The position numbers and the translations under genes are program-made. A stretch of DNA of 64,000 nucleotides from a virus. This document shows, in pieces, positions 399 to 49,200 of this stretch. The DNA is taken from the UHGV virus genome UHGV-0213393. One strand, 5' to 3'. Within the stretch, counting starts at the first letter, position 1, and each line of letters opens with the position of its first letter. Under the pieces are notes generated by a model. That model saw nothing but the letters and a program-made list of their open reading frames with translations, ran no database searches and was not told the DNA's origin.

Positions 399-419
399 AA
401 TGTGTTAGAAAACTAATTT
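399..419. promoter_or_regulatory. operator-like motif copy (TGTTAGAAAA core)
   Basis: atgtgttagaaaactaattt about 20 bp upstream of the 437 ORF. Confidence 0.5.
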
Positions 420-436
420 CAAGGAAGGGAACAAAC

Positions 437-1645
437 ATGAGTCAGCAAGTAGAATCATCAAGCCTGGAGATCATCTCAACCGCAATTGAAACGCTGCGGA
501 CACAAATCGCGCTTATACAGAAACGAAATCCGGGCGATGACCTGTCAAAGCGACTGCATGAGAGCGTCATTGCCACTACAGATAACCTGGTGGCGGAAAT
601 CAACCAGCTCCTTGATGATGGGGCAGTTGATTACAATAAGCTGGTGGATCAGTTTGAGGAATATCAGCAAGCCGTTAATGATGGCTTGATCCGTTTTTCT
701 CAAGTCACTGGTGTATCAGCGACAGTTGAAAGCCTGGGGGATGCAGTTAATCAATTTGCCGCGAATATGCGTAATGAGATCGGCAATCTGGAGGCGCGTC
801 TTGAGCAGGCAAATACACTGCGCAAATCTGCTGAAGTCGATTTGAGTCGTTACAAAAAAGACTATCCGCCAAGCCTGACAAAACGACTGGATGTTGCGGA
901 GAAAGATAACCGCACGCTGAAAAGAGAGCGTCGCGAACTAAAAGAGCGTTTAACCAAGCTAAATCAGCAATGCGTTGAGTATCAAGGCGAACTCGTCACA
1001 CTGCGTAAAAAGTTAGCAGCGGCGCAGAGCATTATTGAAACATTGAAACGAGAGTGTTCAGAGCTTGGTCATGATCTGAATCGCGCCTGTGGCATGGGGC
1101 AAAGGCCAGAGACATTCCCGCTAATGTATGACGGAAGAGAAGCTATTGCCTATATCCATGAGTTTCCGCATGGTCTGGTCGCGGAGACTGGGCAACGTGG
1201 CGAAGCGTTGCTGACGGCAAATTACCATCAGCAAATCAGAACCAGCCGCCTGCTGACGATGGATGTGATCCCATCAGTATGGGGAACGCCGCTTTACTAC
1301 CGAATTCCTGGCTTCGAAACTGACTGGAATACCGACATAGACGAATGTCTGGCAGATAAAATTATGGCGTACCTTGAAACGGATTTTCCACGCTTGCATC
1401 GCCGGATTATGGACTCTAAGGATGCACCGATCGACGAATTGAAAATGCGTCCAGAGACGTTGGAGGCAATCAAGCAGACTGAGTTTGATACAGTGTTCAG
1501 TGTGGCCTGCATTCCAAGCAGCTTTCATGAAAGCATTCCGTTCATGCAGGGCGATCGCCGTCAGGAAATAATTGATGCTTGCCGGGTATGGGCGAACGAG
1601 TGGGATAAGAAGAACGGTGGAGTTGAAAATCTTTACGGGAAATAA
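437..1645 (+). CDS. hypothetical coiled-coil protein
   Basis: 402-aa ORF with RBS aaggaaggga; heptad-rich charged central region; no recognised catalytic motif. Confidence 0.6.
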   Translation: MSQQVESSSLEIISTAIETLRTQIALIQKRNPGDDLSKRLHESVIATTDNLVAEINQLLDDGAVDYNKLVDQFEEYQQAVNDGLIRFSQVTGVSATVESLGDAVNQFAANMRNEIGNLEARLEQANTLRKSAEVDLSRYKKDYPPSLTKRLDVAEKDNRTLKRERRELKERLTKLNQQCVEYQGELVTLRKKLAAAQSIIETLKRECSELGHDLNRACGMGQRPETFPLMYDGREAIAYIHEFPHGLVAETGQRGEALLTANYHQQIRTSRLLTMDVIPSVWGTPLYYRIPGFETDWNTDIDECLADKIMAYLETDFPRLHRRIMDSKDAPIDELKMRPETLEAIKQTEFDTVFSVACIPSSFHESIPFMQGDRRQEIIDACRVWANEWDKKNGGVENLYGK

Positions 1646-1679
1646 TGTGTTAGAAAATTAAAATTGTCTTTCTAACATA
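1646..1679. promoter_or_regulatory. operator-like inverted pair (TGTTAGAAAAT-N9-CTTTCTAACA)
   Basis: tgttagaaaat ... tctttctaaca inverted repeat directly after the 437..1645 stop. Confidence 0.55.
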
Positions 1680-1794
1680 TTGATTATAGGGTTAACTTAA
1701 CATAGAATTTTTCGTGCTGGTGGGGAGCTTCCCATGTCGCTTGCGGGTTTGATAGTCACTTCATTGTCTTTCCCCACCAGCATCAAACAAATTT

Positions 1795-1815
1795 AAGTGT
1801 TAGAAAGTAAATTTT
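1795..1815. promoter_or_regulatory. operator-like motif copy
   Basis: aagtgttagaaagtaaatttt. Confidence 0.4.
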
Positions 1816-2505
1816 AAGGTAAGGGAAAGCTCCGGCACCGTGCAAATACATGCCCGGCAGGTTTAGTGCGTAAAGTGGTTTCAGCGAGAGCATTTTACGG
1901 AGTAAACGACAGTGACTTGAGCCACGGAAGGTCTTTTTAAGGTGTTCATTGATGATGATCTGGCAGTGAGTATGTTAAGTGGGCCAGGCTGCATCGGGTC
2001 ATCATCAGTGAACATCCTCAACGTTAAGGAGGCGCAGAGTTGGGTTTTCCTCTTATTTTGCTGACTCTGAGTCTCCTTAACGTTGCGGTAATGCACCTAT
2101 GCGGATGTGGCCTTGCATTGTGTTTTGAAAGAATGGGGGTAAGGCCGGGGATATCCCCAGGGGGAGGCACCCCCGCTGCAACGAACAGCCATAGACGGCA
2201 GTCGAGTGATGAAAACGTGAAAAGACTTTAAACCTCGTTACGGCTGGCGTGGCAAACGCGACAACCGGGATAGGACGGTGACGGGCGGAGAGAGAGCCGC
2301 TTCAAGATAAAAGCCGACTATGGATTCCTTTCTGCGGGCCTTTGAAAGTGAATCTTGCTCAGGCAGTCGGCTTTTATGTTGATACGTAGCGATAACCGCG
2401 ACAGGCGCGGCGGTAAGTATGGCGGGGTTATTCCTTCCCCGTTGAGGACACCGAGTTGCCAGGTTGACCATACGCCTAAGTGGCAATACCGCGAGTGGGA
2501 TATTT

Positions 2506-2530
2506 GCCCACCTTCGGGTGGGTGTTTTTT
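2506..2530 (+). terminator. rho-independent terminator
   Basis: gcccacc-ttcg-ggtgggtg followed by tttttt; closes an ORF-poor structured region. Confidence 0.7.
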
Positions 2531-2991
2531 CAGTGTTTTCGTCATGGTTAGCGACTTTGCGGCGGTTTAGAAACTGACCATTAAAGTAAATGCAAACGAT
2601 GATCTGATGATGGTAGCGGCCTAAGAAGCCTGACGCCACGGGGTATGAGTCGTCCCCCGTCAAAAAATCGACCGCAGAGTGTCCCCGTCTGTGTATTAGG
2701 GAACGGGGAGGCATAACAGGCAAGGGCGCTGGTGTGATTAACCAGATGAATGAGAAGGGTCAGGTCTTTCTGGTCAGCGCCCTTACCTGTTACGTCCTTC
2801 CCGCGTAACAGCCATTGGTTAATGGCTTTCTGGAATAATGTCTTGTAACGGGTATATCCCGTCATGCTGAAGGCGCTAATCACGCTGGAAGCCAGGGTTA
2901 TGCATCCCCTGTTACCGAATTGCAGCCAGGGCGCGGTGCGCCGAAAAGCATACGGAGGTGGAAGCCCTCGCCGGAGACGTACCCGGCAAGT

Positions 2992-3066
2992 GATGGTGTA
3001 GCTCAGCGGTAGAGCAGTTGGCTGTTAACCAACTGGTCGGTGGTTCGAATCCACCCACCATCGCCA
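2992..3066 (+). tRNA. tRNA-Asn (anticodon GTT)
   Basis: Hand-folded cloverleaf: acceptor gatggtg/caccatc, anticodon loop ctGTTaa, T-arm ggtggttcgaatccacc, 3' CCA encoded. Confidence 0.85.
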
Positions 3067-3071
3067 ATTTA

Positions 3072-3158
3072 GGGGAGTTAGTCCGTAGAGGTAGCGGTGT
3101 AGACTGTAAATCTACTGTCATTGCGACTCGGGTGGTTCGACTCCATCACTCCCCACCA
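3072..3158 (+). tRNA. tRNA-Tyr (anticodon GTA), long variable arm
   Basis: acceptor ggggagt/actcccc, anticodon loop ctGTAaa, extra arm, T-loop ggttcgactcc, CCA encoded; D-arm not fully canonical by eye. Confidence 0.65.
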
Positions 3159-3162
3159 AATT

Positions 3163-3238
3163 GCCGGTTTAGCTCAGTTGGTAGAGCAGTCGCTTTGTAA
3201 GCGAATGGTCAGCGGTTCGATCCCGTTAACCGGCACCA
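3163..3238 (+). tRNA. tRNA-Thr (anticodon TGT)
   Basis: acceptor gccggtt/aaccggc, D-arm gctcagttggtagagc, anticodon loop ttTGTaa, T-loop ggttcgatcc, CCA encoded. Confidence 0.85.
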
Positions 3239-3479
3239 ACACAACAGGTAAGAGCATTTGTAGAGTTCGACTCTCTACCGTGGGCTTTTTCCCGCGATGC
3301 GAGCCATAAATGCTCTTTCCGTTGTGGTGAATGCGCGTTGCTGGCGCGCAAGTCCGCCCTATGGCAACGAGGCGGCGTAGTAAATATCGATGCCTCAGTC
3401 ATCAAGCGCACTGACCGGCCTTATGGGCTATGAAAAAAAGAGGCGCAGTCGGAGATCAGTACCGACCACCACAATCACT

Positions 3480-3566
3480 GGAGAGTAGGGAGCATGGTGC
3501 TCAAGCGGTCTTGAAAACCGTCCCGTCGCGCAAGCGATGATGGTTCGATTCCATTACTCTCCGCCA
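3480..3566 (+). tRNA. tRNA-Ser (anticodon TGA), long variable arm
   Basis: acceptor ggagagt/actctcc, anticodon loop ctTGAaa, long extra arm, T-loop ggttcgattcc, CCA encoded. Confidence 0.65.
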
Positions 3567-3995
3567 TCGCAACGTTAAGAGTATTTGGCTAATTAAGCGA
3601 ATGCCGGAAGCAGAACCGGATCACCAAATGCGTACAGGCGTCATCGCCGCCCAGTCAGCCAAATGCTCTTACCATTGCGGTGAATGCGGCTAAGCGCACG
3701 CGGAACAGTTAAAACAGTAAAGGTGGTCTTTTTACTGGCGTAACGAGAATCCATAAGTGATCCGGCGTTAATTGTTAACTGGTTAACGTCACCGGGAGGC
3801 ACCCGGCACCGCAACCTAACAGCAATGGCGTTTTGTCTTAAAAGGTGGCTGCAAGTGATGGATTTTTGGGCGTTTGCCGATAAAAACCCGGAGTGGACAT
3901 TATTGTTTCTGCTGGTGGTTGCATACGGGGTAGAGCAAGCGGCAAAAGCCTTACGCGGTTCTGGCAAAAAGCGTAAGCGTAATTAACAGTAATCT

Positions 3996-4071
3996 GGCCC
4001 TTTAGCTCAGTGGTTAGAGCGGGCGACTCATAATCGCACGGTCACCGGTTCAAGTCCGGTAGGGGCCACCA
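3996..4071 (+). tRNA. tRNA with CAT anticodon (Met, or Ile if lysidine-modified)
   Basis: acceptor ggccctt/aggggcc, D-arm gctcagtggttagagc, anticodon loop ctCATaa, T-loop ggttcaagtcc, CCA encoded. Confidence 0.8.
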
Positions 4072-4525
4072 CATTTGGTTGTAACACGGCGTATGGCACA
4101 TGCGTCGTTAGCGGTCTGGTGTAGCTGTTAGGTGCCTTACTAACACTGCATGGGCACATCAGGTAGCCGGAATGTGCAAGTCACCGTTGGTAGGATAGCG
4201 GACTCAGGGACTCACCATCCTGGCGATTCGGTGTGACAGCCGGAATAGCACGGCGTACAACAGGAAAAGGTGTTTAATTAATACGAGCGCCTTCTCCGTT
4301 GTGGTAATTGCGGCTATGCGCTCGTGACGAAGCCATTTTCATTCACTACGTTCTGATAAGTGTCGTCGCCGGGCGTGGCTAACCTGGCAGGTGGAGGCAC
4401 CACCGCCACAACTCCTTTCAATTCATCATATAGCCGCTCAGGCTGTAACCCTTAATTAATACGAAGTTACGACGTCACTACCGGTTCAGCCGGGGGATAG
4501 TCGCGCGTGTAAAAAAGGAGACGTT

Positions 4526-5101
4526 ATGTTAACGGCGAACGATAACGCGTATTCAGAAGATGATCTCGTTTTGAGTGACTTTATAGGGCGACGAGAATGC
4601 TGGACGCAAAAGCGCGAGGAGCTTTATGCAGCGTTAGTTCGTAAAGGCGTCAACATCGAAACCGCACAGAACGGTGATATGACAGTGGTAAGTGTTGGAC
4701 TGCACGGCGTAAGTGTGTCAGCAATCAATCACGAGCCGTACATTGCGTTATCCGAGTCGATGGTAAGGTTAGTTAAGTTCCTGAAGTACACAGAAGCGAA
4801 TAACGTGCTCATCGCCAAAAAGAACATCCCGTTCTCATCGGCCTTTTACTGGATGATGAAGGGGCTTGATGCCCGGCGAACATCATGGCCTAAAGGGAGC
4901 TATATATCGATGCTCCGTGGCAGTGTTGGTAGCAAAGAAAAGCTCGTCGAATTCCTGCCGGAAGAGGCATTCGATATTGTTGAAGGTTGTGATGTGATGG
5001 TTATGCCTCGCCTGGTAATGATGAATGGGGATTTACAGGCGCAGACAGACTGGTTTGCAACTGGTGTTGATATTATCGCTACTGACTGGGAGGTTTTTTG
5101 A
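4526..5101 (+). CDS. hypothetical protein
   Basis: 191-aa ORF with RBS aaggag; stop overlaps next start (ATGA). Confidence 0.55.
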   Translation: MLTANDNAYSEDDLVLSDFIGRRECWTQKREELYAALVRKGVNIETAQNGDMTVVSVGLHGVSVSAINHEPYIALSESMVRLVKFLKYTEANNVLIAKKNIPFSSAFYWMMKGLDARRTSWPKGSYISMLRGSVGSKEKLVEFLPEEAFDIVEGCDVMVMPRLVMMNGDLQAQTDWFATGVDIIATDWEVF

Positions 5102-5481: not shown

Positions 5482-5496
5482 CGTTAGTAAATTAAT

Positions 5497-5514
5497 ATTA
5501 ATTTTCTAATACAT
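5497..5514. promoter_or_regulatory. operator-like motif variant (ATTTTCTAATA)
   Basis: taattttctaatacat between ORFs. Confidence 0.35.
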
Positions 5515-5588: not shown

Positions 5589-5981
5589 ATGGAGCAAATC
5601 AGTAGCGCCGAAATAGCGGATATCATGATCAGGGCTGACTGCTATCTGACGGTCACCGAAATCACCAGCCGTGCAAAAGCACAATATCCTCACCTTCATG
5701 TGTCGCGCGTAAACGTAAATAACATCATACGTTTTTTTGTTCGTTCCAGTCGTGCCATTTGCGAAATAGACGACCGCGTATACCCCCGGAAATATTGGTT
5801 ACATGGCCTGAATGGATACCAGTTCAAGGTGCGCGGGCGCACTCCTGAATTCGGTCGGCTGTTGGTGAAAAACACCAACCGAAAGATAGAAGCTCAATTA
5901 CGAAAGGAGCAGCGTCAGTTGGTGGCGATGACTAACCAGCTATGGAACGCCGCTGTGAAAAAACGTGAGGCTTCCCTATGA
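5589..5981 (+). CDS. hypothetical protein
   Basis: 130-aa ORF; overlaps start of downstream terminase small-subunit candidate. Confidence 0.5.
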   Translation: MEQISSAEIADIMIRADCYLTVTEITSRAKAQYPHLHVSRVNVNNIIRFFVRSSRAICEIDDRVYPRKYWLHGLNGYQFKVRGRTPEFGRLLVKNTNRKIEAQLRKEQRQLVAMTNQLWNAAVKKREASL

Positions 5982-8887: not shown

Positions 8888-9925
8888 TTACCAGAGTTTT
8901 GCCGCGTACATCGTTTGTGTGAATGTGTACCCATAGCGTTCTTCAACGCTTTTACCGTATTTTTTCCTGGCTTCAGTAAGGCGGATGCCTGTCAGGTCAT
9001 CGCCGGAGGCAATCATAACTTCCAGTAGTTCCAGGTCCATTTTATCCAGCCTTGCCATTGCATCTTTAGCCTCTTGAATTTTCCGGCTAACGATCTGGTG
9101 TATGGCTGGATCGGCTTCGGCCAGCATTTTATCTGATTTGTTTTTTAAACTCTGATTGCGGATATCAATGTTTCTCAGGATATATGACTTCACGACATAG
9201 CTTGGCTGCTGCTTTTCCAGATCACGAACCCGATAAAGGTCAAATTCGCCGAGAAGTCCGCACGGAAGCGGTTTAATGCCAGTGTAAATGGTAAGGGTAC
9301 GGCGCTCACCAACGTTGTTAACAACGGGAATCTCTGTGTTTGCTTTTCTTGCAAAGATCAGCGCACCGTGCGCACCCACTCGGAAGCGTGAAAGTCCATT
9401 GTTGCCCTCGATATTGGTGGTAATCACCACATCGGTATAACCTTCTTTTCTTGCGCGGTATACCTCGCCCTCACGTTCAGCGGCGAAGAATCTGCGTTCT
9501 TCTTCAAGCGCACCGACAACCTGTGAAAATATCCTGTTTTTCATGCTTTTCTTTATAGTTTTATCGTATTTTTTCAGCAGGTCTTCGCGCGTAAATGTTC
9601 TCGTTGTGGTTGCGCTTTGCATAACGATATGCGTACTCTGATTAGTATCCTCAACAATGAATGGGATCGGTAAATAAACCGACTCAACAATGTTTGAGGC
9701 TTTGTCATCATCCTTGCGACACAGATCAACAAAGGCTTTCCATTCGGCTATGCATTTTTCAGCTTCTTCTAATACAGCCGGATCATGTGTTAATGCAACA
9801 TGGCGAAATTCCTCGCCAACATAACTGGTATCATGGAAAACAGAGTTTGCGACCACCAGCTCTTTCCACCGTTCAGCGGTTTGCAGGAACCGTTTGTACT
9901 CATTCTCGATCGACTTCTTACTCAT
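8888..9925 (-). CDS. hypothetical protein; candidate C1-type repressor by synteny only
   Basis: Start chosen at MSKKSIENEY with RBS AGGA; sits between terminase and the lox/cre module, where P1 carries c1; operator-like motif in its own promoter. Confidence 0.5.
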   Translation of the reverse strand: MSKKSIENEYKRFLQTAERWKELVVANSVFHDTSYVGEEFRHVALTHDPAVLEEAEKCIAEWKAFVDLCRKDDDKASNIVESVYLPIPFIVEDTNQSTHIVMQSATTTRTFTREDLLKKYDKTIKKSMKNRIFSQVVGALEEERRFFAAEREGEVYRARKEGYTDVVITTNIEGNNGLSRFRVGAHGALIFARKANTEIPVVNNVGERRTLTIYTGIKPLPCGLLGEFDLYRVRDLEKQQPSYVVKSYILRNIDIRNQSLKNKSDKMLAEADPAIHQIVSRKIQEAKDAMARLDKMDLELLEVMIASGDDLTGIRLTEARKKYGKSVEERYGYTFTQTMYAAKLW

Positions 9926-9940
9926 TATTCCTACTCGATT

Positions 9941-9958
9941 TAGTTTTCTAACATAAAA
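9941..9958. promoter_or_regulatory. operator-like motif copy in promoter of the 8888..9925 gene
   Basis: tagttttctaacataaaag just upstream (minus strand) of the start codon. Confidence 0.5.
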
Positions 9959-10121
9959 GTCCTGTGACAAATTTATGCTGAATAACAAGGTGAGTAAAGG
10001 ATAAAACCGCTTTTTTTTGATTGTTCCTATTAGAAAATGTAACCAGGAACAGCTACCGCATGGCTGACGGATTTGCGAAGTGATCTGGTCGGTGTTTTTT
10101 TTGGGAAAAAAGTCCTGATTT

Positions 10122-10155
10122 CTAACTTTAAATAATTGGCATTATTTAAAGTTAG
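10122..10155. other. lox-like recombination site (13-bp inverted arms, 8-bp asymmetric spacer)
   Basis: ctaactttaaata-attggcat-tatttaaagttag; arms resemble loxP ATAACTTCGTATA; about 150 bp upstream of the Cre-like gene. Confidence 0.65.
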
Positions 10156-10306
10156 GCTATAATCTCCAGTAAACAGGTAGTATTGACAAGGATGAAAAAT
10201 CATGCCTCGAATCAAAGGCTTGAATTTTGAAAATTAACTTATAACTACCCTGTCAGTTTTCTATTTTTCACGTAGCGTTATCTGTATATAGAGGTTTAAT
10301 AGTTTC

Positions 10307-11335
10307 ATGGGTGAACTAGTTATCTCCGGCGGTTCTGGTGGTTTTCTGCGCGATATTGGCACCGAATACCAAGAAGCTGCAAAAAACTTTATGCAGTTCA
10401 TGAACGACCAGGGAGCTTATGCCCCAAATACGCTTCGAGATCTCCGTCTGGTGTTTCATTCCTGGGCGCGGTGGTGTAACTCGCGCCAGCGCCCCTGGTT
10501 CCCGATTACGCCGGAAATGGCCCGCGAGTATCTTCTCCAGTTGCATGAGGCCGATCTGGCTTCGACCACCATTGATAAGCACTATGCCATGCTTAACATG
10601 CTGCTTTCGCAATGTGGCCTCCCGCCGCTCTCGGACGATAAAAGTGTGTCTCTGGCCATGCGGCGCATCCGGCGCGAAGCGGCAACGGAAAAAGGCGAGC
10701 GAACAGGCCAGGCTATACCGTTGCGGTGGGATGATCTGAAATTGCTCGACGTATTGCTGTCCCGTTCCGAGCGGCTGGTGGACCTGCGCAATCGGGCGTT
10801 TCTCTTCGTGGCATACAATACCCTGATGCGTATGTCAGAAATCTCGCGCATCCGCGTCGGAGATCTGGACCAAACAGGTGACACTGTAACGCTGCATATT
10901 TCACACACGAAGACCATCACGACCGCCGCCGGACTTGATAAGGTGCTTTCTCGTTGCACTACCGCCGTACTGAACGACTGGCTGGAGGTGTCCGGACTTC
11001 GTCAACATCCGGACGCGGTGCTATTCCCGCCAATACACCGCAGTAATAAGGCCAGAATCACGACAACTCCCCTTACTGCACCTGCAATGGAGAAAATATT
11101 CAGCGATGCCTGGGGGTTGCTGAACAAACGAGATGCCACGCCGAACAAGGGAAGATACCGGACGTGGACAGGCCATAGTGCGCGTGTTGGTGCGGCAATT
11201 GATATGGCTGAGAAACAGGTGTCAATGGTCGAGATCATGCAGGAAGGCACATGGAAAAAGCCCGAAACACTTATGCGATATTTGCGCCGTAGCGGGGCAT
11301 CCGTTGGTGCAAATAGTCGCCTGATGGATTCCTGA
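10307..11335 (+). CDS. cre: Cre-like tyrosine site-specific recombinase
   Basis: Blocks SVSLAMRRIRRE, RNRAFLFVAYNTLMRMSEISRIRVGDL and WTGHSARVGAAIDMAEK...MQEGTW match Cre as recalled; catalytic Tyr in LMRYLRR. Confidence 0.9.
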   Translation: MGELVISGGSGGFLRDIGTEYQEAAKNFMQFMNDQGAYAPNTLRDLRLVFHSWARWCNSRQRPWFPITPEMAREYLLQLHEADLASTTIDKHYAMLNMLLSQCGLPPLSDDKSVSLAMRRIRREAATEKGERTGQAIPLRWDDLKLLDVLLSRSERLVDLRNRAFLFVAYNTLMRMSEISRIRVGDLDQTGDTVTLHISHTKTITTAAGLDKVLSRCTTAVLNDWLEVSGLRQHPDAVLFPPIHRSNKARITTTPLTAPAMEKIFSDAWGLLNKRDATPNKGRYRTWTGHSARVGAAIDMAEKQVSMVEIMQEGTWKKPETLMRYLRRSGASVGANSRLMDS

Positions 11336-11353
11336 ATTAATTTTCTAACAACC
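11335..11353. promoter_or_regulatory. operator-like motif copy
   Basis: aattaattttctaacaacc directly after the cre stop. Confidence 0.45.
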
Positions 11354-22095: not shown

Positions 22096-22131
22096 AATAT
22101 GTTAGAAAATTAAAATTAATATTCTAACACG
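22096..22131. promoter_or_regulatory. operator-like inverted pair
   Basis: atgttagaaaat-N9-atattctaacac upstream of the minus-strand 21062..22057 gene. Confidence 0.55.
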
Positions 22132-26973: not shown

Positions 26974-27010
26974 TTGTGTTAGAAAATCAATTTTGATTTT
27001 CTAACATATT
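26974..27010. promoter_or_regulatory. operator-like inverted pair in a divergent promoter
   Basis: gtgttagaaaatc-N6-gattttctaacat between the minus-strand operon and the ref-like gene. Confidence 0.6.
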
Positions 27011-27051: not shown

Positions 27052-27627
27052 ATGAAGCAAAGCTATTGGGAGAAACAGACACAAAAAGCCCTGCAAAAAC
27101 TGGCTGATCCGAAATGGCGGGAGGAACAAAGGGCAAAGCGTCTTCAGCAAGCTCAACGCCAGCAGCAGCGTGCGCGAGAAAAAGCCGCATCGCCTGAATA
27201 TCGGCAAAAGAAAATTGAAAAAGCGAAGCAATATGAACAGCGAAGAAAAGAGAAGGCCGCTTCTGCTCCTGTCAAAAAAACTCGCGCGTCACGCGGCCTG
27301 AAAGGCAGAACACTCACAGCAGATGAGCGCCGGATACAAACTGCCATCGGTGCTCTCCCCTGCATTGCCTGCCATATGCACGGACAGCATAGCCCTGTGG
27401 TATCCCTGCACCACATCTTCGGAAGAACAGCAGAGAACGCGCATAAATACGTCCTCCCTTTGTGTAAATGGCACCATCAACACGCAGCGCCAGCAGAGAT
27501 CCGCGAGCAATACCCCTGGTTGGTTCCTGTTCATGCTGATGGAAAAATAGGCGGCAAAGCAGATTTCAGGCGGCACAATGCTGATGAAATGACGTTGTAT
27601 CAGATGGTGACTGAATTAATAAATTAA
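27052..27627 (+). CDS. ref: Ref-like HNH-motif protein (recombination enhancement function-like)
   Basis: Lys/Arg/Gln-rich N-terminus then CIACHMHGQ...HHIFG...CKWHH Cys/His cluster; flanked by operator motifs as P1 ref is by C1 operators. Confidence 0.55.
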   Translation: MKQSYWEKQTQKALQKLADPKWREEQRAKRLQQAQRQQQRAREKAASPEYRQKKIEKAKQYEQRRKEKAASAPVKKTRASRGLKGRTLTADERRIQTAIGALPCIACHMHGQHSPVVSLHHIFGRTAENAHKYVLPLCKWHHQHAAPAEIREQYPWLVPVHADGKIGGKADFRRHNADEMTLYQMVTELIN

Positions 27628-27642
27628 TTTTCTAACATTTTA
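27620..27642. promoter_or_regulatory. operator-like motif copy
   Basis: aattaattttctaacatttt after the ref-like stop. Confidence 0.5.
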
Positions 27643-28126: not shown

Positions 28127-28232
28127 GAAAACACACAGTTGCGCCCTGGCATTATCGTGGGGTATATTTCTACGGCACCTTAGAAAAACGGGTGCCGGGA
28201 TTGGAACCCCGGATAATGTCAAAGGCGACACA

Positions 28233-28255
28233 GACGCCGAACGCGTCTTTTTTTG
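28233..28255 (+). terminator. rho-independent terminator
   Basis: gacgc-cgaac-gcgtc followed by ttttttt. Confidence 0.7.
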
Positions 28256-28439
28256 TGTCATGCCATCGCACAGCCATACTTAGCGTTTAGCTCAGAGATC
28301 AATGGTAGTGCTGGCTGGGCTGCCGAAAGGCAGGCCGGTTCCCTTTGACGCCGGTAGTTCCAACCCAGTCAGTGCTACCGCCATTGAGATTGGAACCTCA
28401 CGCGGTAGCTCCTTAACTTAGTCAAAGGAGGCTGCCAAT

Positions 28440-28655: not shown

Positions 28656-29596
28656 TGAATCTGTCCATCTCTCAAAAAGCGACAATGACCAGTATTGAGA
28701 TCGCGGAACTGGTAGGTAAGCGTCATGATAATGTGAAGCGTACCATTGAAGTATTAACTAAAGGTGGTGTCATTCAATTTCCTCAAATTGAGGAAATTGA
28801 AAATAAACAATCAGTTGGCCCTCGTCGATTTTCCAAGGCTTACATCTTTGAAGGCGAACAAGGCAAGCGCGATAGCATCATTGTCGTCGCGCAGCTCTCT
28901 CCCGAATTCACCGCCCGGCTGGTGGACCGCTGGCGCGAACTGGAGAATGCCAGGGGACCGTTAAAATCAAAAGCCGAAATCTTGGCCGAAATGGCGCAAA
29001 TGCATCTTGAGCATGAACGCCGGATCAACGCCGTTAATGCCCAGGTAGCCGAAGTATCGGCACAAGTGTCCAAAGTCGCTGAAACCGTCGAGCAAATAAA
29101 GAAAGGCAATATTCCGGAAGGCTACATTAGCTACCGCCAGTTAGCGGCAAAATGCGGCCTGACTGAAGCCAAATGCCGTAACCTGGTCAATGCGTATCGG
29201 ATTCCCACCGATACACATGAGTTTTTAACTCCCGATGGTTTGCTCGCGAGACGCTCCATTGTGGCCCTGGCCCCCTTCCGGAAAGCCTTTAAGCAGGTTA
29301 TGTCGGAGGCAGAACCACGTAACAAACGCTGGTATCATCCCAGGATGGGGCTATTTCAGGCCATTCACCATCCTGTGCCTGAAAGTCCAAAGGCAAACCT
29401 GTCGTTGCATACCGCCAGAGAGAAGATTAAAACAGGGTATGCAACCGTATGCCGTCGAGCATCCTGGCCTGAAAGTGTCTGGGTATGGCCCGAAAGAGGC
29501 TCACGGAAAAACTGGCGCACCATTCGCGACGGCAAAATCTGTGCGATTGATTTACAGCCAGAAGATGTAGCAGCGACCGACTGGATTGTTAGTTAA
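28655..29596 (+). CDS. Rha-family phage regulatory protein / antirepressor-like
   Basis: N-terminal TSIEIAELVGKRHDNVKRTIEVL matches the Rha/antirepressor N-terminal signature. Confidence 0.65.
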   Translation: MNLSISQKATMTSIEIAELVGKRHDNVKRTIEVLTKGGVIQFPQIEEIENKQSVGPRRFSKAYIFEGEQGKRDSIIVVAQLSPEFTARLVDRWRELENARGPLKSKAEILAEMAQMHLEHERRINAVNAQVAEVSAQVSKVAETVEQIKKGNIPEGYISYRQLAAKCGLTEAKCRNLVNAYRIPTDTHEFLTPDGLLARRSIVALAPFRKAFKQVMSEAEPRNKRWYHPRMGLFQAIHHPVPESPKANLSLHTAREKIKTGYATVCRRASWPESVWVWPERGSRKNWRTIRDGKICAIDLQPEDVAATDWIVS

Positions 29597-29634
29597 TAGA
29601 TTTGCCCCGGTCATGCCGGGGCTTTAACTACTAA

Positions 29635-33405: not shown

Positions 33406-33621
33406 GTAAACAAAATGAAGTTTTATGTTATAAAAACAATTAACTACATCAACATGATTTAGGCCAAATTTCGGTCAAAAAATAAAATCCACAAAAAGTG
33501 GTTGACACTATTTTGGAAATCACAAACTACACATAATCCATCGCGCTAACGGCTCCCGTTGAAGGTTCTTTTGACGATTAACTTTCAGCCGAAGCGCGGT
33601 AGGGAGTCATAACGCCAAAGC

Positions 33622-34327: not shown

Positions 34328-34655
34328 TCACATTAGTAGCTTTGTTAACTCCCTCAATACTAGGTAGAAGAGTAACAAAAATACTGACGCCAGTATTTGC
34401 GTGGTCAATGAGGCGTTCATAAACAGATCAATAAGCTTTAACAATTCTAGAATAACATCCATGTCATTCACTCCGTTTAATTTTTAATCTAATGCCAGCA
34501 AATGAAGCTGGCCCCCGCATAAAGATTAATGAAAGTCACTTGTCACCAATGAGGGGATTTATGAACCACATCCCCCTGAACTGGTGGCCTGTCTGTTTCT
34601 CGCATTTCACACCCTGTATACAGTTTCCCCCAGGTTATGACTGTGAGGAACTGTT

Positions 34656-36207: not shown

Positions 36208-36957
36208 TTACTTGTCCTTTGATGTCGATTGAGACTCATATATTGTCTCTACGTCATCTATTAGTTTATTAATACCCCACAATCCAGTGTCTTTATAAAA
36301 ATCGCTTTCTTCAATTGCTTTTAATAAATCGGCAAAATCTTCTTGGGTGGAAATTCTTTTCTTTTTTGCTTTATATACATCGACAATTACTTTTATGCCG
36401 TGATACAGAGCCACTCTGGCACTCTCAGTCTCTCTCTTCTTCTCTTCAATTGCAGACAATAATTTATATTGATCTTCTGTTTGCTTTTCTAGACTTAAAA
36501 GCTTGCTCTCTTTTTGCTTCAAGTTGATCTGCAACTCTTTTATTCTTGCCCTCTCTTCTAAATCAAACTCATAGTCAATGTATCTAATTCTTGCATAGTT
36601 CCTGCCTGTTGCTTTTGATATATACATTGTTATATAAGGCATTACCACTGACGCAGTGGTTCCATATATAAATGGCATAACAAAATGAGCCACAAACGGA
36701 GATACAATGATGGGGCCAACATAAGGAAAGTGATATTTCTCACCAACCCATACTATAGACAATGTTGTATATATATCGTACTTTGATTTAAATAATATAA
36801 TAATATCCTGCCAGTTAACGACAAAAAAAGAAACCACAACATATGCAAACAACTTATTAAATAACTTGTCTCTTATGGCTTCTTCTATTGTGTTCCTGAC
36901 TGTGACATTTTCATCTTTATTTTCTAATGATGAATCTTTGCTCATATAAAAATTCAA
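36208..36957 (-). CDS. hypothetical membrane protein with cytoplasmic coiled-coil
   Basis: 249-aa ORF; hydrophobic helices then charged coiled-coil; strongly AT-rich. Confidence 0.55.
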   Translation of the reverse strand: MNFYMSKDSSLENKDENVTVRNTIEEAIRDKLFNKLFAYVVVSFFVVNWQDIIILFKSKYDIYTTLSIVWVGEKYHFPYVGPIIVSPFVAHFVMPFIYGTTASVVMPYITMYISKATGRNYARIRYIDYEFDLEERARIKELQINLKQKESKLLSLEKQTEDQYKLLSAIEEKKRETESARVALYHGIKVIVDVYKAKKKRISTQEDFADLLKAIEESDFYKDTGLWGINKLIDDVETIYESQSTSKDK

Positions 36958-37006: not shown

Positions 37007-37366
37007 TCAAACACCAACCAGGCTTTCAAGAGGAATGCCAAACTGGGAATGTAAACGACGAATCATAGGTAACGTCAAATTTCGCGTGCCATTAAGCACT
37101 TCGTAAACACGGTTTGACTTACCAATTGCCGGTTCCAGATCCTTCACTGTCAGCCCTTGCTGTTCCATACGAAACTTAATGGCTTCAATAGGTGATGGTG
37201 GCTCAATTGGGTAATGCTTTTTCTCGTACTCTTCGATGAGCAGGCACATTACTTCAAAGAAATCGCCTTCCGGTGTGTTCATTTCCGGTTCGTTATCGAA
37301 CATCGGTTCGACCGCACGCAGTGCGGCCTCATAATCTTGTTCTGTACGGATAGGTTTAATGTTCAT
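37007..37366 (-). CDS. higA: HigA-family antitoxin (HTH)
   Basis: C-terminal LTVKDLEPAIGKSNRVYEVLNGTRNLTLPMIRRLHSQFGIP parallels E. coli HigA. Confidence 0.8.
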   Translation of the reverse strand: MNIKPIRTEQDYEAALRAVEPMFDNEPEMNTPEGDFFEVMCLLIEEYEKKHYPIEPPSPIEAIKFRMEQQGLTVKDLEPAIGKSNRVYEVLNGTRNLTLPMIRRLHSQFGIPLESLVGV

Positions 37367-37750: not shown

Positions 37751-38608
37751 GAATTGAAATCACAATCTCCAGACAATGCCCCTCGATACCAGATAAATCG
37801 ACCTTTGAGGACGCTTATGGGCCGTTTTGATGAATGGCTTGCTGATGATGCAAGCCTGATGAGAAAGGGAACAGAACATGACAGCACGCAGAGAGAAGAG
37901 ACAACGACGGTTGAAGCGAATGAAGGAAGCACAACGGAAAATGGGAATGTCAGTGCAGGGCCATTCAGTATTCTGGAAGAGCACGCCGCCACCCAATCTA
38001 ATAGCCATGATAATTGGCCTGATAATGCTGGTGACTCTGTTACGGAAGTGATTGAACCTGACATCGCTCCCCTACCGGCATCGCTCGCTAACAGAGAACC
38101 AAACCAGCAGCTTAAAACCCGATATAACGGACATAAAGCGTTCAACGACCAGATCCGCGCCGATTGGATGCTCATTATTGAATCAAGCCCTGACGCGTTC
38201 GAGGCGCTTTTATACCGCCCGGCTGATGGCACCTATGGCGTCGTAAACGATGAAACAGGTGAAGAGTCTTTCACGCAACTGGACAACAACCAGCGTGAGC
38301 TTACCTATCTGGAACCGGAAATCGTATACGTCCTAGATAACCCGGACGGAAGGGATTCGTTTCATGCCATTGATGCCGATGGAGAACAGGATGGTCTTGC
38401 TGATGAAGTGCTAATCCTACGTATTGCTGCAAACAACGTACCTGTTGGTTCAATCCTGGAATGGAACGAAGAAATGGCGAATGGCCTCGCCCGCCGCTGG
38501 TGGTACGTGCATCGAATCTTCAGCTACGGAACACAACACGTCGGCTCCCTTTATTACTGCATCCCGGCCAGGAACTTTGATACCACTCAAAACGGAGTGA
38601 TCGAATGA
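37739..38608 (+). CDS. hypothetical acidic protein
   Basis: 289-aa ORF; true start uncertain because 5' end overlaps the higBA promoter. Confidence 0.45.
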   Translation: MLGYELKSQSPDNAPRYQINRPLRTLMGRFDEWLADDASLMRKGTEHDSTQREETTTVEANEGSTTENGNVSAGPFSILEEHAATQSNSHDNWPDNAGDSVTEVIEPDIAPLPASLANREPNQQLKTRYNGHKAFNDQIRADWMLIIESSPDAFEALLYRPADGTYGVVNDETGEESFTQLDNNQRELTYLEPEIVYVLDNPDGRDSFHAIDADGEQDGLADEVLILRIAANNVPVGSILEWNEEMANGLARRWWYVHRIFSYGTQHVGSLYYCIPARNFDTTQNGVIE

Positions 38609-41042: not shown

Positions 41043-41079
41043 CTGTGTTAGATAATTGAGTTTTATTTTCTAACATAGT
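41043..41079. promoter_or_regulatory. operator-like inverted pair
   Basis: tgtgttagataatt-N6-tattttctaacatag upstream of rdgC. Confidence 0.55.
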
Positions 41080-44850: not shown

Positions 44851-44869
44851 ATTAGAACCATAACAGTAT

Positions 44870-44892: not shown

Positions 44893-44910
44893 TTTGAAGA
44901 TGTAGATTTG

Positions 44911-45276
44911 TTAATCAGGGAGTGAGTTTGCCAAATTCTGTGCAGAGCGGCTTTTCGAAACGCCAGGTTTTTTAACATCCGCTGAGGCTGAGGGGTTTCC
45001 TTCAGGGTTTTCCCGAACTTCAGGCGAAATTTCAAGAAATGAAACCAGCATTTTTCTGATCACTTCAGGGCTATTATCACCGGATAAAAGCGATGCCAAC
45101 ATGGGAGGTAATCTGCTATCAACCTCGCCAAGAGCGATACCTGCAAGCATCGCTGTGCGCGCCATATCATTGCGATCTCTTAATGGATGGCCCTCAAGTT
45201 TTGCATCAGCATATTGCTCACTGGCGTTAAGACCAGGACGAAGATAAAACAATACTTTTCGACGTTCCTGAGACAT
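44911..45276 (-). CDS. parR: ParR centromere-binding protein
   Basis: Directly downstream of parM; RNDMARTAMLAGIAL parallels R1 ParR. Confidence 0.75.
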   Translation of the reverse strand: MSQERRKVLFYLRPGLNASEQYADAKLEGHPLRDRNDMARTAMLAGIALGEVDSRLPPMLASLLSGDNSPEVIRKMLVSFLEISPEVRENPEGNPSASADVKKPGVSKSRSAQNLANSLPD

Positions 45277-45286
45277 GGCAACCTCA

Positions 45287-46246
45287 TCAACCGATAGATT
45301 TTAGACCATAGACAAGAGCAAGTTGTGGATCATCAGCAACGAAAAACCTATCGTCACGAATGTTTACCTGCTCACGGATAGCATCAGCAACAAGCGGCGC
45401 GCCGCCACCAATGACCATAACATGCGTGTATCCTTTGAAATCACTGATCACATCCAGTACGCGTGTACGGAGTCGTTCTATGCTTGACGAAATGGCTTTC
45501 TTAACATCATCAATAGCAGACGGATCGTTAATATTGTCGGTCAAATAATCCTCATCATCACGATTAATGATTAATTGATCGACATTATAATTAGAGGTTT
45601 CGGTATTCGCTTTTGCAAGTGCCTGTCTGACCTCTTTAGTTACCAGCGAAACGCCGAGATTAGAATCGCCAAATACGCGAGAAACGGCGGTCATTTGCCC
45701 GGCGACCATCGACACATCCAGAGTAGTCCCACCAAGATCAACAATAAGCACAGAATGCGCTGGCACAAGGCTGTCGCACAGACCGATCCCTGCGGGTATT
45801 GACTCCGGGCGCACAGTCACTTTTTTGATAGTAAAAACCTGACCTTTGTTAAGGGTGACTGGTCGCATCAGGCTGGCCTTTTTCCGCTCAATATTTTTCA
45901 TGTTGTATTGTGCGTCGTCGTCATAAAACTCTGCCAGTGGCAACGTGACAACTATTTCCACTTCTTGAGGCTCAATGCCACTTGTAAGCAGGGCATGATG
46001 AACAGCAAGCACATTAAGCGGGCTGTATTGCCATTCAACGTTATTCGTCGGCAGCACATCCGGCGAGATCAAGTCATATGAATATTTTTCGTCATCAATG
46101 ATGTAGTTAAACGGCTTTCCTGCGCCAAATGTGGCGGACCATCCACGTTTAAAACTGTTCGGACAGATATGGGTTCGAGTTTCCCCGTCTTGTTCCCACA
46201 GCATTTTGATATTGGTAGAACCATCGTCGATAAAAATGCGCATCAT
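45287..46246 (-). CDS. parM: ParM/StbA actin-like partition ATPase
   Basis: MMRIFIDDGSTNIK, HHALLTSG, IVDLGGTTLDVS, GYTHVMVIGGGA closely parallel R1 ParM as recalled; RBS GGAG. Confidence 0.9.
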   Translation of the reverse strand: MMRIFIDDGSTNIKMLWEQDGETRTHICPNSFKRGWSATFGAGKPFNYIIDDEKYSYDLISPDVLPTNNVEWQYSPLNVLAVHHALLTSGIEPQEVEIVVTLPLAEFYDDDAQYNMKNIERKKASLMRPVTLNKGQVFTIKKVTVRPESIPAGIGLCDSLVPAHSVLIVDLGGTTLDVSMVAGQMTAVSRVFGDSNLGVSLVTKEVRQALAKANTETSNYNVDQLIINRDDEDYLTDNINDPSAIDDVKKAISSSIERLRTRVLDVISDFKGYTHVMVIGGGAPLVADAIREQVNIRDDRFFVADDPQLALVYGLKSIG

Positions 46247-46339
46247 ATTGCTCCACTTCTGAGACACATTTGAGAAAGAATTGAATTTTATATGAGAAAA
46301 CAAAATAAGACCAGAAGTTAGATAGCGTAAAAAGCATCA

Positions 46340-46435
46340 AACTAGAGACGCAATAGAGACACAAAAGAGACTTAGATGATACATGATGTACCCACGATAC
46401 CCGTTTGAGACAAATCAGAGACAAATGTGAGAAGT
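46340..46435. repeat. parC-like iterated AGAGAC repeats upstream of parM
   Basis: At least five AGAGAC(A) copies. Confidence 0.5.
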
Positions 46436-46495
46436 AAGAAATCTGAAGAGTGAAAATCACAAAGTGGAGAAGATTTAAGAAAAAGGAGGTGTTAG

Positions 46496-46780
46496 ATGAG
46501 TGCAATAGCGACCAGTGACACAGTTTGTTCTGGTCATGGAGGATTCCCTCCGCGACCTGTAGCAGAAACAGTTTCCTGGTTTACCGTAAATGGAAAGCCA
46601 GTGGTTGTAGATGGGGGAGCGTTCCCAAGCCATACAGACGGAAATAGCGCGCACCCCGGATCAGCCGTATCGACGCGCTCATGGTTTGCAATAGGCGGGA
46701 AAGGAGTTGTTTGTGTGGGAGATCCCCTTTCTTGTGGCTCAGTCATCGCCAATGGTGAAGCAATTTTTCAGGTGTCATAA
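46496..46780 (+). CDS. PAAR-domain protein
   Basis: TVNGKPVVVDG and GGKGVVCVGDPLSCGSVIA match PAAR repeat pattern; RBS AGGAGG. Confidence 0.6.
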   Translation: MSAIATSDTVCSGHGGFPPRPVAETVSWFTVNGKPVVVDGGAFPSHTDGNSAHPGSAVSTRSWFAIGGKGVVCVGDPLSCGSVIANGEAIFQVS

Positions 46781-47574
46781 TGCTTGATTCAATCGCTGAA
46801 GTTAATGCATTCAAAATTCTAAATGCATCAGGCACAACTACGCCTGCATCTATCACGCTAAGTAAAACAGCGTCATCCAATGCCAGTTCTCTGGAAGAGA
46901 ATATCCAGGCTCTTATCCTGAAGGATAAAGCATACCCGGCGTCGGTGGTTTCATGGGTCAATCAGCTTTCTGTCTTTTCAGAACAACTGAAAACTGTCAG
47001 TGCAGAAGCAACCAATTTAGCCGACTCGCTGTCTCCGTATACTTCGCCAACTGAATTACTTCAGATGAAAATTGGCTGGGAATGTTACGTCAAAGGTAAT
47101 GAGTTATCTCCTGCGCCAGAATTTGCTCTCGTAACAGTTATGGGAGATACCCTGCATCCGCAATCGCTTATTGACGCGTTGGCAGCATTTGAACTGGTGC
47201 CAATCACTTCAGCCATGACCGCTATAAATGCAAAAGTTCAGGCGTCAAGCGGGGAGGCTTCAGGCAACGGAAGTTCCACCGGAACAACACAGCAACCAGC
47301 ACTAACAGAAGAAGAGATCAAAGCACTAAAAGACGCTGTGGAAGCAGCAACAGAACAAATAAATGCAATAAACAACACGAGCAGTAGTCTCTCAACACTT
47401 GTACAGCAAGTTAAGGACTCTACCGGAAAAGCCAAACAGGGACTGGAGAATGCTGTAGCTATTACGTTAACCGGTTCTCTACTGGGCGATGAAGTAATGA
47501 GTCCGGCAATCAGTTTGATCATGCCACAAGGTGTGATCGATGCGCTCCAAAGCAACACTAAAAAGGAACCATAA
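46780..47574 (+). CDS. hypothetical protein
   Basis: 264-aa ORF coupled to PAAR gene. Confidence 0.5.
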   Translation: MLDSIAEVNAFKILNASGTTTPASITLSKTASSNASSLEENIQALILKDKAYPASVVSWVNQLSVFSEQLKTVSAEATNLADSLSPYTSPTELLQMKIGWECYVKGNELSPAPEFALVTVMGDTLHPQSLIDALAAFELVPITSAMTAINAKVQASSGEASGNGSSTGTTQQPALTEEEIKALKDAVEAATEQINAINNTSSSLSTLVQQVKDSTGKAKQGLENAVAITLTGSLLGDEVMSPAISLIMPQGVIDALQSNTKKEP

Positions 47575-47644
47575 CCACACCATTTAAGCCCATAAATGGT
47601 TACAAATTGGTACACATATCACACCAACAAAAAATCTGAAGAGG

Positions 47645-48103
47645 ATGGTTTTGAAAAAGATAATTTTGATAGTAGTTGCGCTTTTAGCCATTTATGGAAT
47701 TTACCGTACTACGGCGGCAGTTATCGATCACATCAGGTATATCCGTTCCCTGGAAGACTCAAAATCACAACTTGAAAGCGAGAACAACACGCTTTCTACC
47801 GCATTGCAGTTAAGTGAAAAATCGCGATCTGCCATGATGGCTGAAAACGAAAGAATTAAAACACTGGAGAAGGAGTACCAGCGCAAAACAGCAGAACTGA
47901 ATACCAGCCTGATCAAACAACGGGAGGAAAGCCAGAATGAAATCAATCGTCTTGAAACTGCGTTACGCAATGCCGGGGTTAATGATGTGCGTGTGCCTGA
48001 TGACGTTATCAGGATGCAGCGGGAACGGGCAAAAGAAATCAATCAGCGTGCCAATGCAAATTACCGTAGAAGCCACCAGCAAACCGCAGGGAAATCTGAT
48101 TGA
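47645..48103 (+). CDS. i-spanin (Rz-like)
   Basis: N-terminal TM helix then long coiled-coil. Confidence 0.55.
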   Translation: MVLKKIILIVVALLAIYGIYRTTAAVIDHIRYIRSLEDSKSQLESENNTLSTALQLSEKSRSAMMAENERIKTLEKEYQRKTAELNTSLIKQREESQNEINRLETALRNAGVNDVRVPDDVIRMQRERAKEINQRANANYRRSHQQTAGKSD

Positions 48104-48317
48104 TTATACCCCTTGCATAGTGCCAGAGGACACGCCTGTGCTGTTAAACAAGTATCCGGCATACACTGAACAGTTATTCAGCACTATCGATGAATGCAAC
48201 CAACGAAACGCACTGAATAACCAAAGGAATAGGGAGATTTGGGAAGGGAAGGGGGTTAAGGCTCCTGAAGCCAGATGTCCTGGCTGTCAGCTTCTTCGAA
48301 ACCGTGACAGACGTTAA
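47937..48317 (+). CDS. o-spanin (Rz1-like lipoprotein), overlapping i-spanin in another frame
   Basis: Positively charged n-region, hydrophobic core, lipobox LSGC; Pro-rich; overlaps 3' part of Rz-like gene. Confidence 0.5.
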   Translation: MKSIVLKLRYAMPGLMMCVCLMTLSGCSGNGQKKSISVPMQITVEATSKPQGNLIDYTPCIVPEDTPVLLNKYPAYTEQLFSTIDECNQRNALNNQRNREIWEGKGVKAPEARCPGCQLLRNRDRR

Positions 48318-48738
48318 AGTCACTCAAGCGATACTGGCGCTGACGGCCTCTATTTCGCTCATGCCAATGCATATATCCACCAGCAAATGCCAGCGGACAA
48401 TCGCTATAGTCGATGTAGCCAATACCATTACCCAAACGCGCTTCGCGCGCCCCGGCTTTCCAGGACAGCAGAAAAGAGTCACGATCTGCCAGCATGACTA
48501 CAAAATCATCCGGATCGCCTATGCAGTGAAGAATGCCTGCCTTGCATAACTGTTTGAGTGCCTTGGACTGACTCAGGATGTCTTCACCGTAATACTGAAA
48601 ACAATCATCAACAATAGCAGGATAGCCAGCGGGTGGATTCAGGCTGGTTGGTATAGCTGACGCGATAGCCAGCATTAAACGATATTGTGTTTTCGATGGG
48701 TTCGCGTGACTCATGTTTCCTCTACTCACTGTCTCCAT
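48256..48738 (-). CDS. hypothetical protein
   Basis: 160-aa ORF. Confidence 0.45.
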   Translation of the reverse strand: METVSRGNMSHANPSKTQYRLMLAIASAIPTSLNPPAGYPAIVDDCFQYYGEDILSQSKALKQLCKAGILHCIGDPDDFVVMLADRDSFLLSWKAGAREARLGNGIGYIDYSDCPLAFAGGYMHWHERNRGRQRQYRLSDFNVCHGFEEADSQDIWLQEP

Positions 48739-49118
48739 GCATTTTTCAGCTCCGGAATATCAGCCATTTCAACCAGCTTCCGAAGCCCCGCGCTGACCTT
48801 CCCATTACCAACCGCAGCAAGCCAATCCCTTACTGACTTCGGCATATAAAGAGTGGTCGTTACAGGATCTTCCACTCTTACAGGCGTGCCAATTTGAGGC
48901 CACTTAACAGATGCCAAAACGTCAGAAGGCGGGGTAAGCGCGGGAACATTAAGAATAGCCTTTCCTGAATGGAGAATCACGATTCGTTCAGCCAGGGAAA
49001 GAATGTCTCTTTCAGTAAGGATTGATGACAGTTGAGCTTCTACAAGGCATCTGCTGCTTGTATTCAGAGAATGGCTTTTAGCACCATTTTTGTATGAAAC
49101 GAAGATCTTGTACGCCAT
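48726..49118 (-). CDS. hypothetical protein
   Basis: 130-aa ORF; promoter region carries operator motifs. Confidence 0.45.
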   Translation of the reverse strand: MAYKIFVSYKNGAKSHSLNTSSRCLVEAQLSSILTERDILSLAERIVILHSGKAILNVPALTPPSDVLASVKWPQIGTPVRVEDPVTTTLYMPKSVRDWLAAVGNGKVSAGLRKLVEMADIPELKNAWRQ

Positions 49119-49200
49119 TTGTTCTAATGTTTTATGTTAGAAAATTAAGATTAAACCATACTAACACAAGATTGTTAACGAAAATTATTTTTCTAATGCT
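49118..49200. promoter_or_regulatory. operator-like motif cluster in divergent promoter
   Basis: ttgttctaatg, tatgttagaaaattaag, ctaaca, attatttttctaatgc. Confidence 0.55.

Follow-up and report, generated by a model that had tools for sequence, protein, structure and literature searches.

What recognises the short sequence that recurs between the genes of UHGV virus genome UHGV-0213393? The window examined here, that is, the whole stretch of 64,000 nucleotides that was analysed, is that of a D6-like, P1-family phage-plasmid. Its first 12 kb share 83% identity with Escherichia phage D6, a plasmid prophage related to P1, and 98% identity with ~90-kb non-mobilizable plasmids found in E. coli and E. 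marmotae. An earlier reading of the letters alone, hereafter the original prediction, had noticed an operator-like 11-mer, TGTTAGAAAAT, in intergenic regions on both strands. It had proposed that the copies are the operators of a repressor encoded at 8888-9925, and that they define the lysogeny regulon of the element. The motif is probably, with a probability of about 0.8, the operator of the C1-type immunity repressor that the element itself encodes at this place. This reading, which draws on analogy with phage P1, is preferred because the motif is enriched, lies in non-coding DNA, has a P1-like format, occupies positions homologous to those of P1 operators and forms conserved footprints, and because the box of the late-promoter activator Lpa is distinct from it.

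A 17-bp motif enriched in non-coding DNA

The occurrence of TGTTAGAAAAT was counted on both strands with at most one mismatch. There were 17 matches in the window, compared with 1.62 ± 1.18 in dinucleotide shuffles, and none of the 100 shuffles reached 17. The motif was present in all eleven intervals that had been named in the original prediction (11 of 11), with starts at 403; 1648 and 1667; 1798; 5482 and 5501; 9943; 11340; 22100 and 22119; 26977 and 26996; 27627; 41046 and 41065; and 49135, accompanied by a weaker one at 49182. The conserved element is longer than the 11-mer first noticed. It spans 17 bp, is asymmetric and reads TGTTAGAAAAYTAAWWT (TGTTAGAAAAT-TAA-WW-T), with information carried at positions 1-17 and no internal symmetry. 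As positions 12-17 are conserved in unpaired copies too, they are not just the shadow of a palindromic partner.

A matrix was built for the 17-mer, and the bit scores given below refer to it. Sixteen strong sites were obtained, with scores of 19.9-28.7 bits; at a threshold of ≥9 bits, there were 24 matches compared with 4.6 in Markov nulls. The coding share of the window is 85.8%, and all 16 strong sites are in non-coding DNA. Two simple matches, at 52149 inside the sheath gene and at 55631 at the pmgC/tub junction, are low-scoring, fall within coding sequence or at its border, and are probably due to chance. The weaker copies at 49182-49198 and 10028-10044 are probably real.

The sites are arranged in 12 loci, with seven single sites and five bivalent ones. 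Each of the five bivalent sites consists of two inverted 17-mers that overlap by 4 bp and form a 30-bp palindrome. Inverted pairs had been described as lying 6-12 bp apart; in all five, the distance between the 11-mers is exactly 8 bp. No weak back-to-back partner of ≥3 bits was found next to the single sites. Both orientations are found relative to the flanking genes.

Positions of the sites and of the P1 operators

Dispersed operators of the C1 repressor are standard P1 biology. The gene map of the window was obtained by carrying over the D6 annotation by tblastn, and the two are co-linear. The map starts with pmgR, pmgS, a tRNA cluster, orf6/5, lpa, pacA, pacB and c1 (8888-9925, minus strand). 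It continues with dre, which encodes a Cre-like recombinase, orf117...dut...isaA, phd/doc, pdcB, ppp, ref, icd/ant and mat. The remainder comprises tail, baseplate and head genes, par, capsid gene 23, sheath gene 22 and sit. The operators and late promoters of P1 were read directly from the annotated record AF234172, which lists Oref, Omat, Odmt, Obanab, OpmgRa/b, Olpa, Oc1ab/c/d/e, Oc4 and OrepL. Conservation of the sites was followed in three lineages: the window, D6 and a Shigella plasmid.

The c1 gene is preceded by a single site at 9937-9953 (minus strand, 22.7 bits), 11 nt upstream of its ATG, which would be the autoregulation site. It is identical in D6 and nearly identical in the Shigella plasmid. 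A distal operator-like site lies in the c1-dre intergenic region at 10028-10044 (plus strand). It scores 7.2 bits only, and its TTAGAAAA core is kept in D6 and the Shigella plasmid amid an otherwise divergent stretch. In P1, Oc1ab/c/d/e are found upstream of c1. Upstream of lpa (ATG at 5589), the bivalent site at 5482-5511 has arms of 21.0 and 24.2 bits and ends 78 bp before the ATG; P1 Olpa, which abuts the -35 element of Plpa, ends 71 bp before the ATG. The three lineages agree in both arms of the lpa palindrome and diverge in the spacer.

Two sites surround ref. A bivalent site at 26977-27006 (arms of 27.0 and 25.3 bits) lies between the divergent genes orf88 and ref, and P1 has Oref upstream of ref. 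A single site at 27621-27637 (minus strand) is a perfect match to the consensus, with 28.7 bits. It overlaps the ref stop and is upstream of orf86-orf85-isrK-C4-icd-ant, combining the settings of two P1 operators, Omat, which overlaps the ref stop, and Oc4, which is ahead of c4-icd-ant. A further bivalent site at 41046-41075 (arms of 19.9 and 22.5 bits; D6 64116-64145) lies between gene 5 and hrdC-methyltransferase-dmt, like Odmt upstream of uhr-hrdC-dmt in P1.

The pmgS gene has sites on both sides. The single site at 403-419 (plus strand, 26.2 bits) is 17 nt upstream of its ATG (437) and is kept in D6 and the Shigella plasmid despite diverging flanks; P1 OpmgRa/b control pmgR and pmgS. After the pmgS stop, the bivalent site at 1648-1677 (arms of 27.1 and 21.0 bits) heads a leader and five tRNA genes, just as a dicF-like region and tRNAs follow the bivalent Obanab in P1. 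A single site at 1798-1814 (plus strand, 23.8 bits) lies in the leader of this tRNA operon; its TGTTAGAAA core is kept in D6 and the Shigella plasmid.

Four further sites complete the series within the window. At 11334-11350 (minus strand, 26.1 bits), a single site follows the dre stop and precedes orf117, the first gene of the orf117-dut-isaA operon, by 57 nt; the site is conserved in D6 and the Shigella plasmid. A bivalent site at 22100-22129 (arms of 27.1 and 25.2 bits; D6 80709-80738) is found between ppp and pdcB, both on the minus strand. The divergent region between orf52 and capsid gene 23 contains a single site at 49135-49151 (plus strand, 26.0 bits), 16 nt from the start of orf52 (minus strand), with its D6 counterpart at 54201-54217, and a weaker operator-like site at 49182-49198 (minus strand, 17.8 bits), 10 nt upstream of the capsid gene's late promoter. 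Operators and late promoters also occur together in P1, at mat and gene 26. Outside the window, exact copies of the motif are present upstream of repL and of a second icd-ant operon in both D6 and the 98%-identical plasmid pEC361_3. The former corresponds to OrepL of P1, which is upstream of kilA-repL.

In D6 as a whole (~83% DNA identity), 14 sites of ≥13 bits were found, all of them intergenic and at the same loci as in the window. In the Shigella dysenteriae plasmid, the C1 of which is 69% identical, the motif is found at c1, at dre/orf117, on both sides of pmgS and at repL. In three-way alignments, the 17-mers appear as islands of identity within diverging intergenic DNA. This conservation and the positional homology with P1 support the P1-like placement that had been proposed, the assignment of the sites to the 8888-9925 repressor and the view that they outline a lysogeny regulon.

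Some sequences adjacent to the operators or intermediate in score were also recorded. Immediately upstream of the pmgS operator, at 380-402, ATTGCATACTAATAAAAT resembles a P1-type operator (ATTGCACTAATAATTTT, O26) but for one extra base. D6 and the Shigella plasmid keep only its ACTAATAAAAT part, and the sequence may be a relic operator or a promoter part. Intermediate operator-like sequences are present at 29587-29603 (plus strand) and 36913-36929 (minus strand), with 15.9 and 16.2 bits. The one at the ant stop, upstream of pmgF, has a TGTTAGTTAAT core also found in D6; the other falls within the first codons of orf73. Between the bivalent site at 1648-1677 and the single site at 1798, a stable hairpin is predicted at 1714-1783 (plus strand; -30.2 kcal/mol, z = -3.8). 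In D6 and the Shigella plasmid, the stem arms, GCTGGTGG/CCACCAGC, are kept and the interior diverges. Rfam gave no match for the hairpin, which may be a leader or small RNA structure of the tRNA operon, where P1 has its dicF-like region.

Recognition sequence and immunity

The C1 operators of P1 have the consensus ATTGCTCTAATAAATTT, which is 17 bp long and asymmetric, and is found at 22 sites (PMC8546580). The sites of the window resemble this immC regulon of P1/P7 in format: a 17-bp asymmetric sequence, dispersed in many copies that face either way and are single or bivalent. In P1, the bivalent sites Oc1ab and Obanab are made of inverted 17-mers that overlap by 6 bp and span 28 bp; in the window, five of the 12 loci are bivalent, with an overlap of 4 bp and a span of 30 bp. 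The layout is common to both, with the specific 5' halves directed outward and the AT-rich 3' ends overlapping centrally.

The recognition sequence itself differs. A TTAGA/TCTAA core and an AT-rich flank are common to TGTTAGAAAAYTAAWWT and the P1 operator, and this shared core is suggestive only. The original prediction had held that the core resembles the P1 C1 operator. That resemblance does not go beyond TTAGA/TCTAA. The P1-type operator ATTGCTCTAATAAATTT was not matched with ≤4 mismatches at any regulatory position of the window or of D6, and the motif of the window had no match in 45 kb of P1. Since the recognition sequence differs from that of P1, the element should be heteroimmune to P1. 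The system of the window most likely belongs, as a heteroimmune member, to the known P1 C1 operator/regulon system, and the known picture of P1-type regulation is unchanged.

What is gained is a concrete operator sequence and a list of genes of the predicted C1 regulon for the D6 group of P1-like phage-plasmids, together with a sequence-level explanation of why D6-type and P1-type elements should be heteroimmune. At least 152 plasmid records carry the C1 type of the window. The D6 group is common in E. coli, Shigella and Salmonella, and its elements are annotated almost wholly as 'hypothetical protein'. The GenBank and RefSeq records of D6 contain no operator features. In a literature search, phage D6 was not linked with operators, the D6 genome paper being outside its scope, and the motif string gave unrelated matches only.

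The candidate repressor

The candidate master repressor, C1, is a protein of 345 aa encoded on the minus strand at 8888-9925 and is 81% identical to the C1 of D6. BLASTP aligned it to the 283-aa C1 of P1 with 21% identity over 241 aa (E=2e-7). The C1 of the Citrobacter plasmid described below bridges the two, with E=1e-40 to the C1 of the window and 3e-11 to that of P1. The synteny is that of P1: pacB is followed by c1, then by a recombination site and a recombinase gene. A homologue of P1 Coi was looked for upstream of c1, where the open reading frame at 10030-10215 shows no similarity to it. Plasmid pSa1423-90k, with a C1 nominally '46%' identical, was set aside, as this C1 looks frameshifted.

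Possible operator variants in more distant plasmids

In P1-like plasmids of Pantoea and Citrobacter, the C1 proteins of which are ~30% identical to that of the window, the window motif occurs at chance level. A different sequence, CCTTAGAAT, is present in the Citrobacter portucalensis plasmid NZ_CP099371 in six exact copies (5778, 13617, 18377, 26034, 26214 and 39799), compared with 0.39 expected, and is absent from the window. Its places are upstream of rdgC/hrdC, of ref and, twice, of lpa, at the recombinase stop, and after pro (pro/repL); near-copies are found upstream of c1. The Pantoea agglomerans plasmid NZ_CP134736 contains exact copies upstream of c1 and lpa (19888 and 26307). Neither TGTTAGAAAAT nor CCTTAGAAT is above chance in the other's element. 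The two have in common the TTAGAA core, the AT-rich 3' extension and the loci; they differ in their flanks, which are CC...T in CCTTAGAAT and TG...AAAT in the window motif. A variant based on TGTTAG, TGTTAGTACAAC, had been considered in the Citrobacter c1 leader. It does not recur, and CCTTAGAAT was found instead. The CCTTAGAAT sites of these plasmids are not known from the literature.

It is tentatively proposed, at somewhat less than even odds, that three or more mutually exclusive operator variants, all built around TTAGA, arose as the C1 repressors of P1-family phage-plasmids diversified, with the wiring of the regulon almost unchanged. The variants would be ATTGCTCTAAT in P1 (ATTAGAGCAAT on the other strand), TGTTAGAAAAT in the D6 group and CCTTAGAAT in the Citrobacter/Pantoea group; what would be kept are the genes controlled, the single and bivalent formats, and the promoter-embedded palindromes. 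Comparison of three operator variants could help to show how the structurally uncharacterised C1 family reads DNA. If true and undescribed, such a diversification would provide a natural set of orthogonal monomeric repressor/operator pairs. It would also make immunity groups predictable from sequence among the many P1-like plasmids that carry resistance genes.

Proposed assignment of the motif to C1

Several results weigh against the assignment of the motif to C1. The homology to P1 C1 is weak, at 21% identity. The NCBIfam model phage_rep_C1 is matched with E=2.5e-5 over profile positions 10-249 of 283, but with 23.9 bits compared with a cut-off of 500 bits. The C1 of the window has no Pfam family, and its PHROG is annotated as 'unknown function'. 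When the matrix of the motif was compared with that of the P1 operator at all offsets and in both orientations, the similarity was no better than with column-shuffled P1 matrices (P≈0.65). Scans for the σ70 consensus gave fewer promoter-like matches than shuffled sequences, and a relaxed scan gave weak candidates only, with 8-9 matches of 12, and no more than 8 of 12 within or beside the sites; for lpa, the best -10 candidate is found ~40 bp past the palindrome on its downstream side. In the Citrobacter element, C1, Lpa and the late box are all different, and co-variation alone cannot separate C1 from other lineage-specific regulators. The link between motif and C1 is drawn from analogy and position.

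Another reading is that of a genuine operator that is read by a different regulator, such as an orf72-type protein (37010-37366), an Xre/Rha-type phage protein or a host nucleoid protein. The binding by C1 is a matter of inference, no PDB relative and no recognisable DNA-binding Pfam domain were found for C1, and several lineage-specific proteins would co-vary with the motif just as well. Such a regulator is nevertheless unlikely. The sites coincide with the loci of the experimentally defined P1 C1 operators, including the autoregulatory ones at c1; the 17-bp asymmetric format, single or bivalent, is that of the P1 C1 operators; and the scans made brought up no other dispersed intergenic motif that might serve C1. 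It is because of this positional homology with experimentally defined operators, and not of lineage co-variation alone, that C1 is preferred.

Promoter geometry and proposed repression

Promoter-like sequences accompany several of the sites. The c1 site lies between a conserved promoter-like pair, TTTACT...TAAATT, and the ribosome-binding site. The pmgS site comes after a TAAAAT hexamer, and a σ70-like TTGATT-17-TAGAAT at 1680-1708 abuts the palindrome that follows pmgS. The palindromes themselves read TG(TTAGAA)-17 nt-(TAACA)T, that is, a -35-like TTAGAA and a -10-like TAACAT; in four of the five, TAACAT is completed by a T at the end that faces the downstream gene, and the opposite end has C in its place. 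A plausible promoter geometry is seen at pmgS, c1, ref, hrdC and the tRNA operon, and it is less evident at lpa. In P1, Oban holds both the -35 and the -10 of P1ban inside the operator. The palindromes of the window allow the same reading, and by this analogy each bivalent site appears to hold within it the promoter under its control.

The palindromes and half-sites could, on the other hand, be constitutive AT-rich early promoters or UP-like elements for the host RNA polymerase, without a dedicated repressor. The hexamers just described, their 17-nt spacing and the orientation of the completing T are what speaks for this. It is very improbable all the same, as the match to the σ70 consensus is poor (7-8 of 12), single sites are without a -35/-10 pair, and the information content of the motif peaks in TGTTAGAAAA, which is not a promoter hexamer. 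The 17 strictly conserved positions and the location of the c1-leader site downstream of its promoter fit an operator bound by a protein. Constitutive promoters are also compatible with promoter-embedded operators such as Oban of P1, and are to that extent not a true alternative.

With C1 as the regulator, a mechanism modelled on P1 can be proposed. In the plasmid-prophage state, C1 bound to these sites would block the host RNA polymerase at early and immunity promoters. Predicted operators precede c1, lpa, ref, C4-icd-ant, hrdC-dmt, the tRNA operon, pmgS, pdcB and orf117-dut in the window, and repL outside it. The targets of C1 would comprise early and replication functions (repL, hrdC-dmt and the tRNA operon), the antirepressor operons, ref, c1 itself and lpa. 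With lpa repressed, the late genes would all be silenced indirectly.

Late promoters and Lpa

The Lpa of the window is 34% identical to that of P1. With identities of 21% for C1 and 34% for Lpa, both proteins are expected to read DNA different from that of their P1 relatives. According to the P1 record, the Lpa-dependent late promoters of P1 have the form AAGTNACTT-N4-TAnnnT. Late operons of D6 have another motif upstream, AAATCACAAACTG, followed after 2 nt by a -10-like nAnnnT; it was found at the R/S tail fibre, lydA/dar, prt, ddrB, capsid 23, pmgB/sit, 7, 26, mat and upfC operons. This is the architecture of the P1 late promoters, with a box centred near -21 to -22 and a -10 element, in which the box has changed.

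A matrix trained on the D6 late boxes gave nine matches of ≥12 bits in the window, compared with 1.5 expected. Six were strong, each aimed at a late gene 21-136 nt downstream. These D6-type late promoters, all on the plus strand, are those of mat (33517-33537), 26 (34604-34624), 7 (37757-37777), upfC (46454-46474), 23 (49208-49228) and pmgB (58131-58151). No strong late box coincides with a TGTTAGAAAAT site.

It is hardly credible that TGTTAGAAAAT is itself the D6-type Lpa box, an upstream late-promoter element bound or used by the activator: a changed box is indeed expected from the 34% identity of Lpa, TAAWWT directly follows the 11-mer and is readable as a -10, and two loci are beside late genes (pmgS and capsid gene 23), but the separate motif AAATCACAAACTG-N2-nAnnnT is always aimed at a late gene in both D6 and the window, TGTTAGAAAAT is not found upstream of those late operons except at gene 23, whose own late box is closer, most motif sites precede early or immunity genes in inconsistent orientation, and two of the six strong single sites (10028-10044 is too weak and was excluded) aim into the 3' end of a convergent gene. 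The motif also differs from the P1 late promoters in sequence, in gene neighbours and in having no fixed orientation. With the motif read as the C1 operator, the early and immunity promoters are set apart from the late promoters with their D6-type box.

A perfect P1-type late promoter, AAGTGACTT-tcat-TAATCT, with a P1-like ggtgac flank, is present at 34523-34541 (minus strand; D6 71096-71114) and is the only P1-type late box in the window. It lies in the divergent orf76/gene 26 region, the place of the bidirectional LP26/LPpmgL of P1, beside the D6-type box of gene 26.

Other features of the element

The product of ref matches the Pfam family RecA_dep_nuc. The tRNA cluster consists of five genes (Asn, Tyr, Thr, Ser-UGA and Met/Ile-CAT type) at 2992-4071 on the plus strand. 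The segment 2387-4255, which contains it, is nearer to P7/P1-like phages (87-89% identical) than to D6, indicating mosaicism. Two RNAs of the antirepressor region were identified on the plus strand, an isrK-like RNA at 28175-28253 (Rfam RF01394, 61 bits) and a C4 antisense RNA at 28298-28385 (RF01695, 77 bits). They sit directly upstream of icd-ant and form with it a complete immI-type antirepressor module. The second icd-ant copy is located elsewhere in D6 and pEC361_3.

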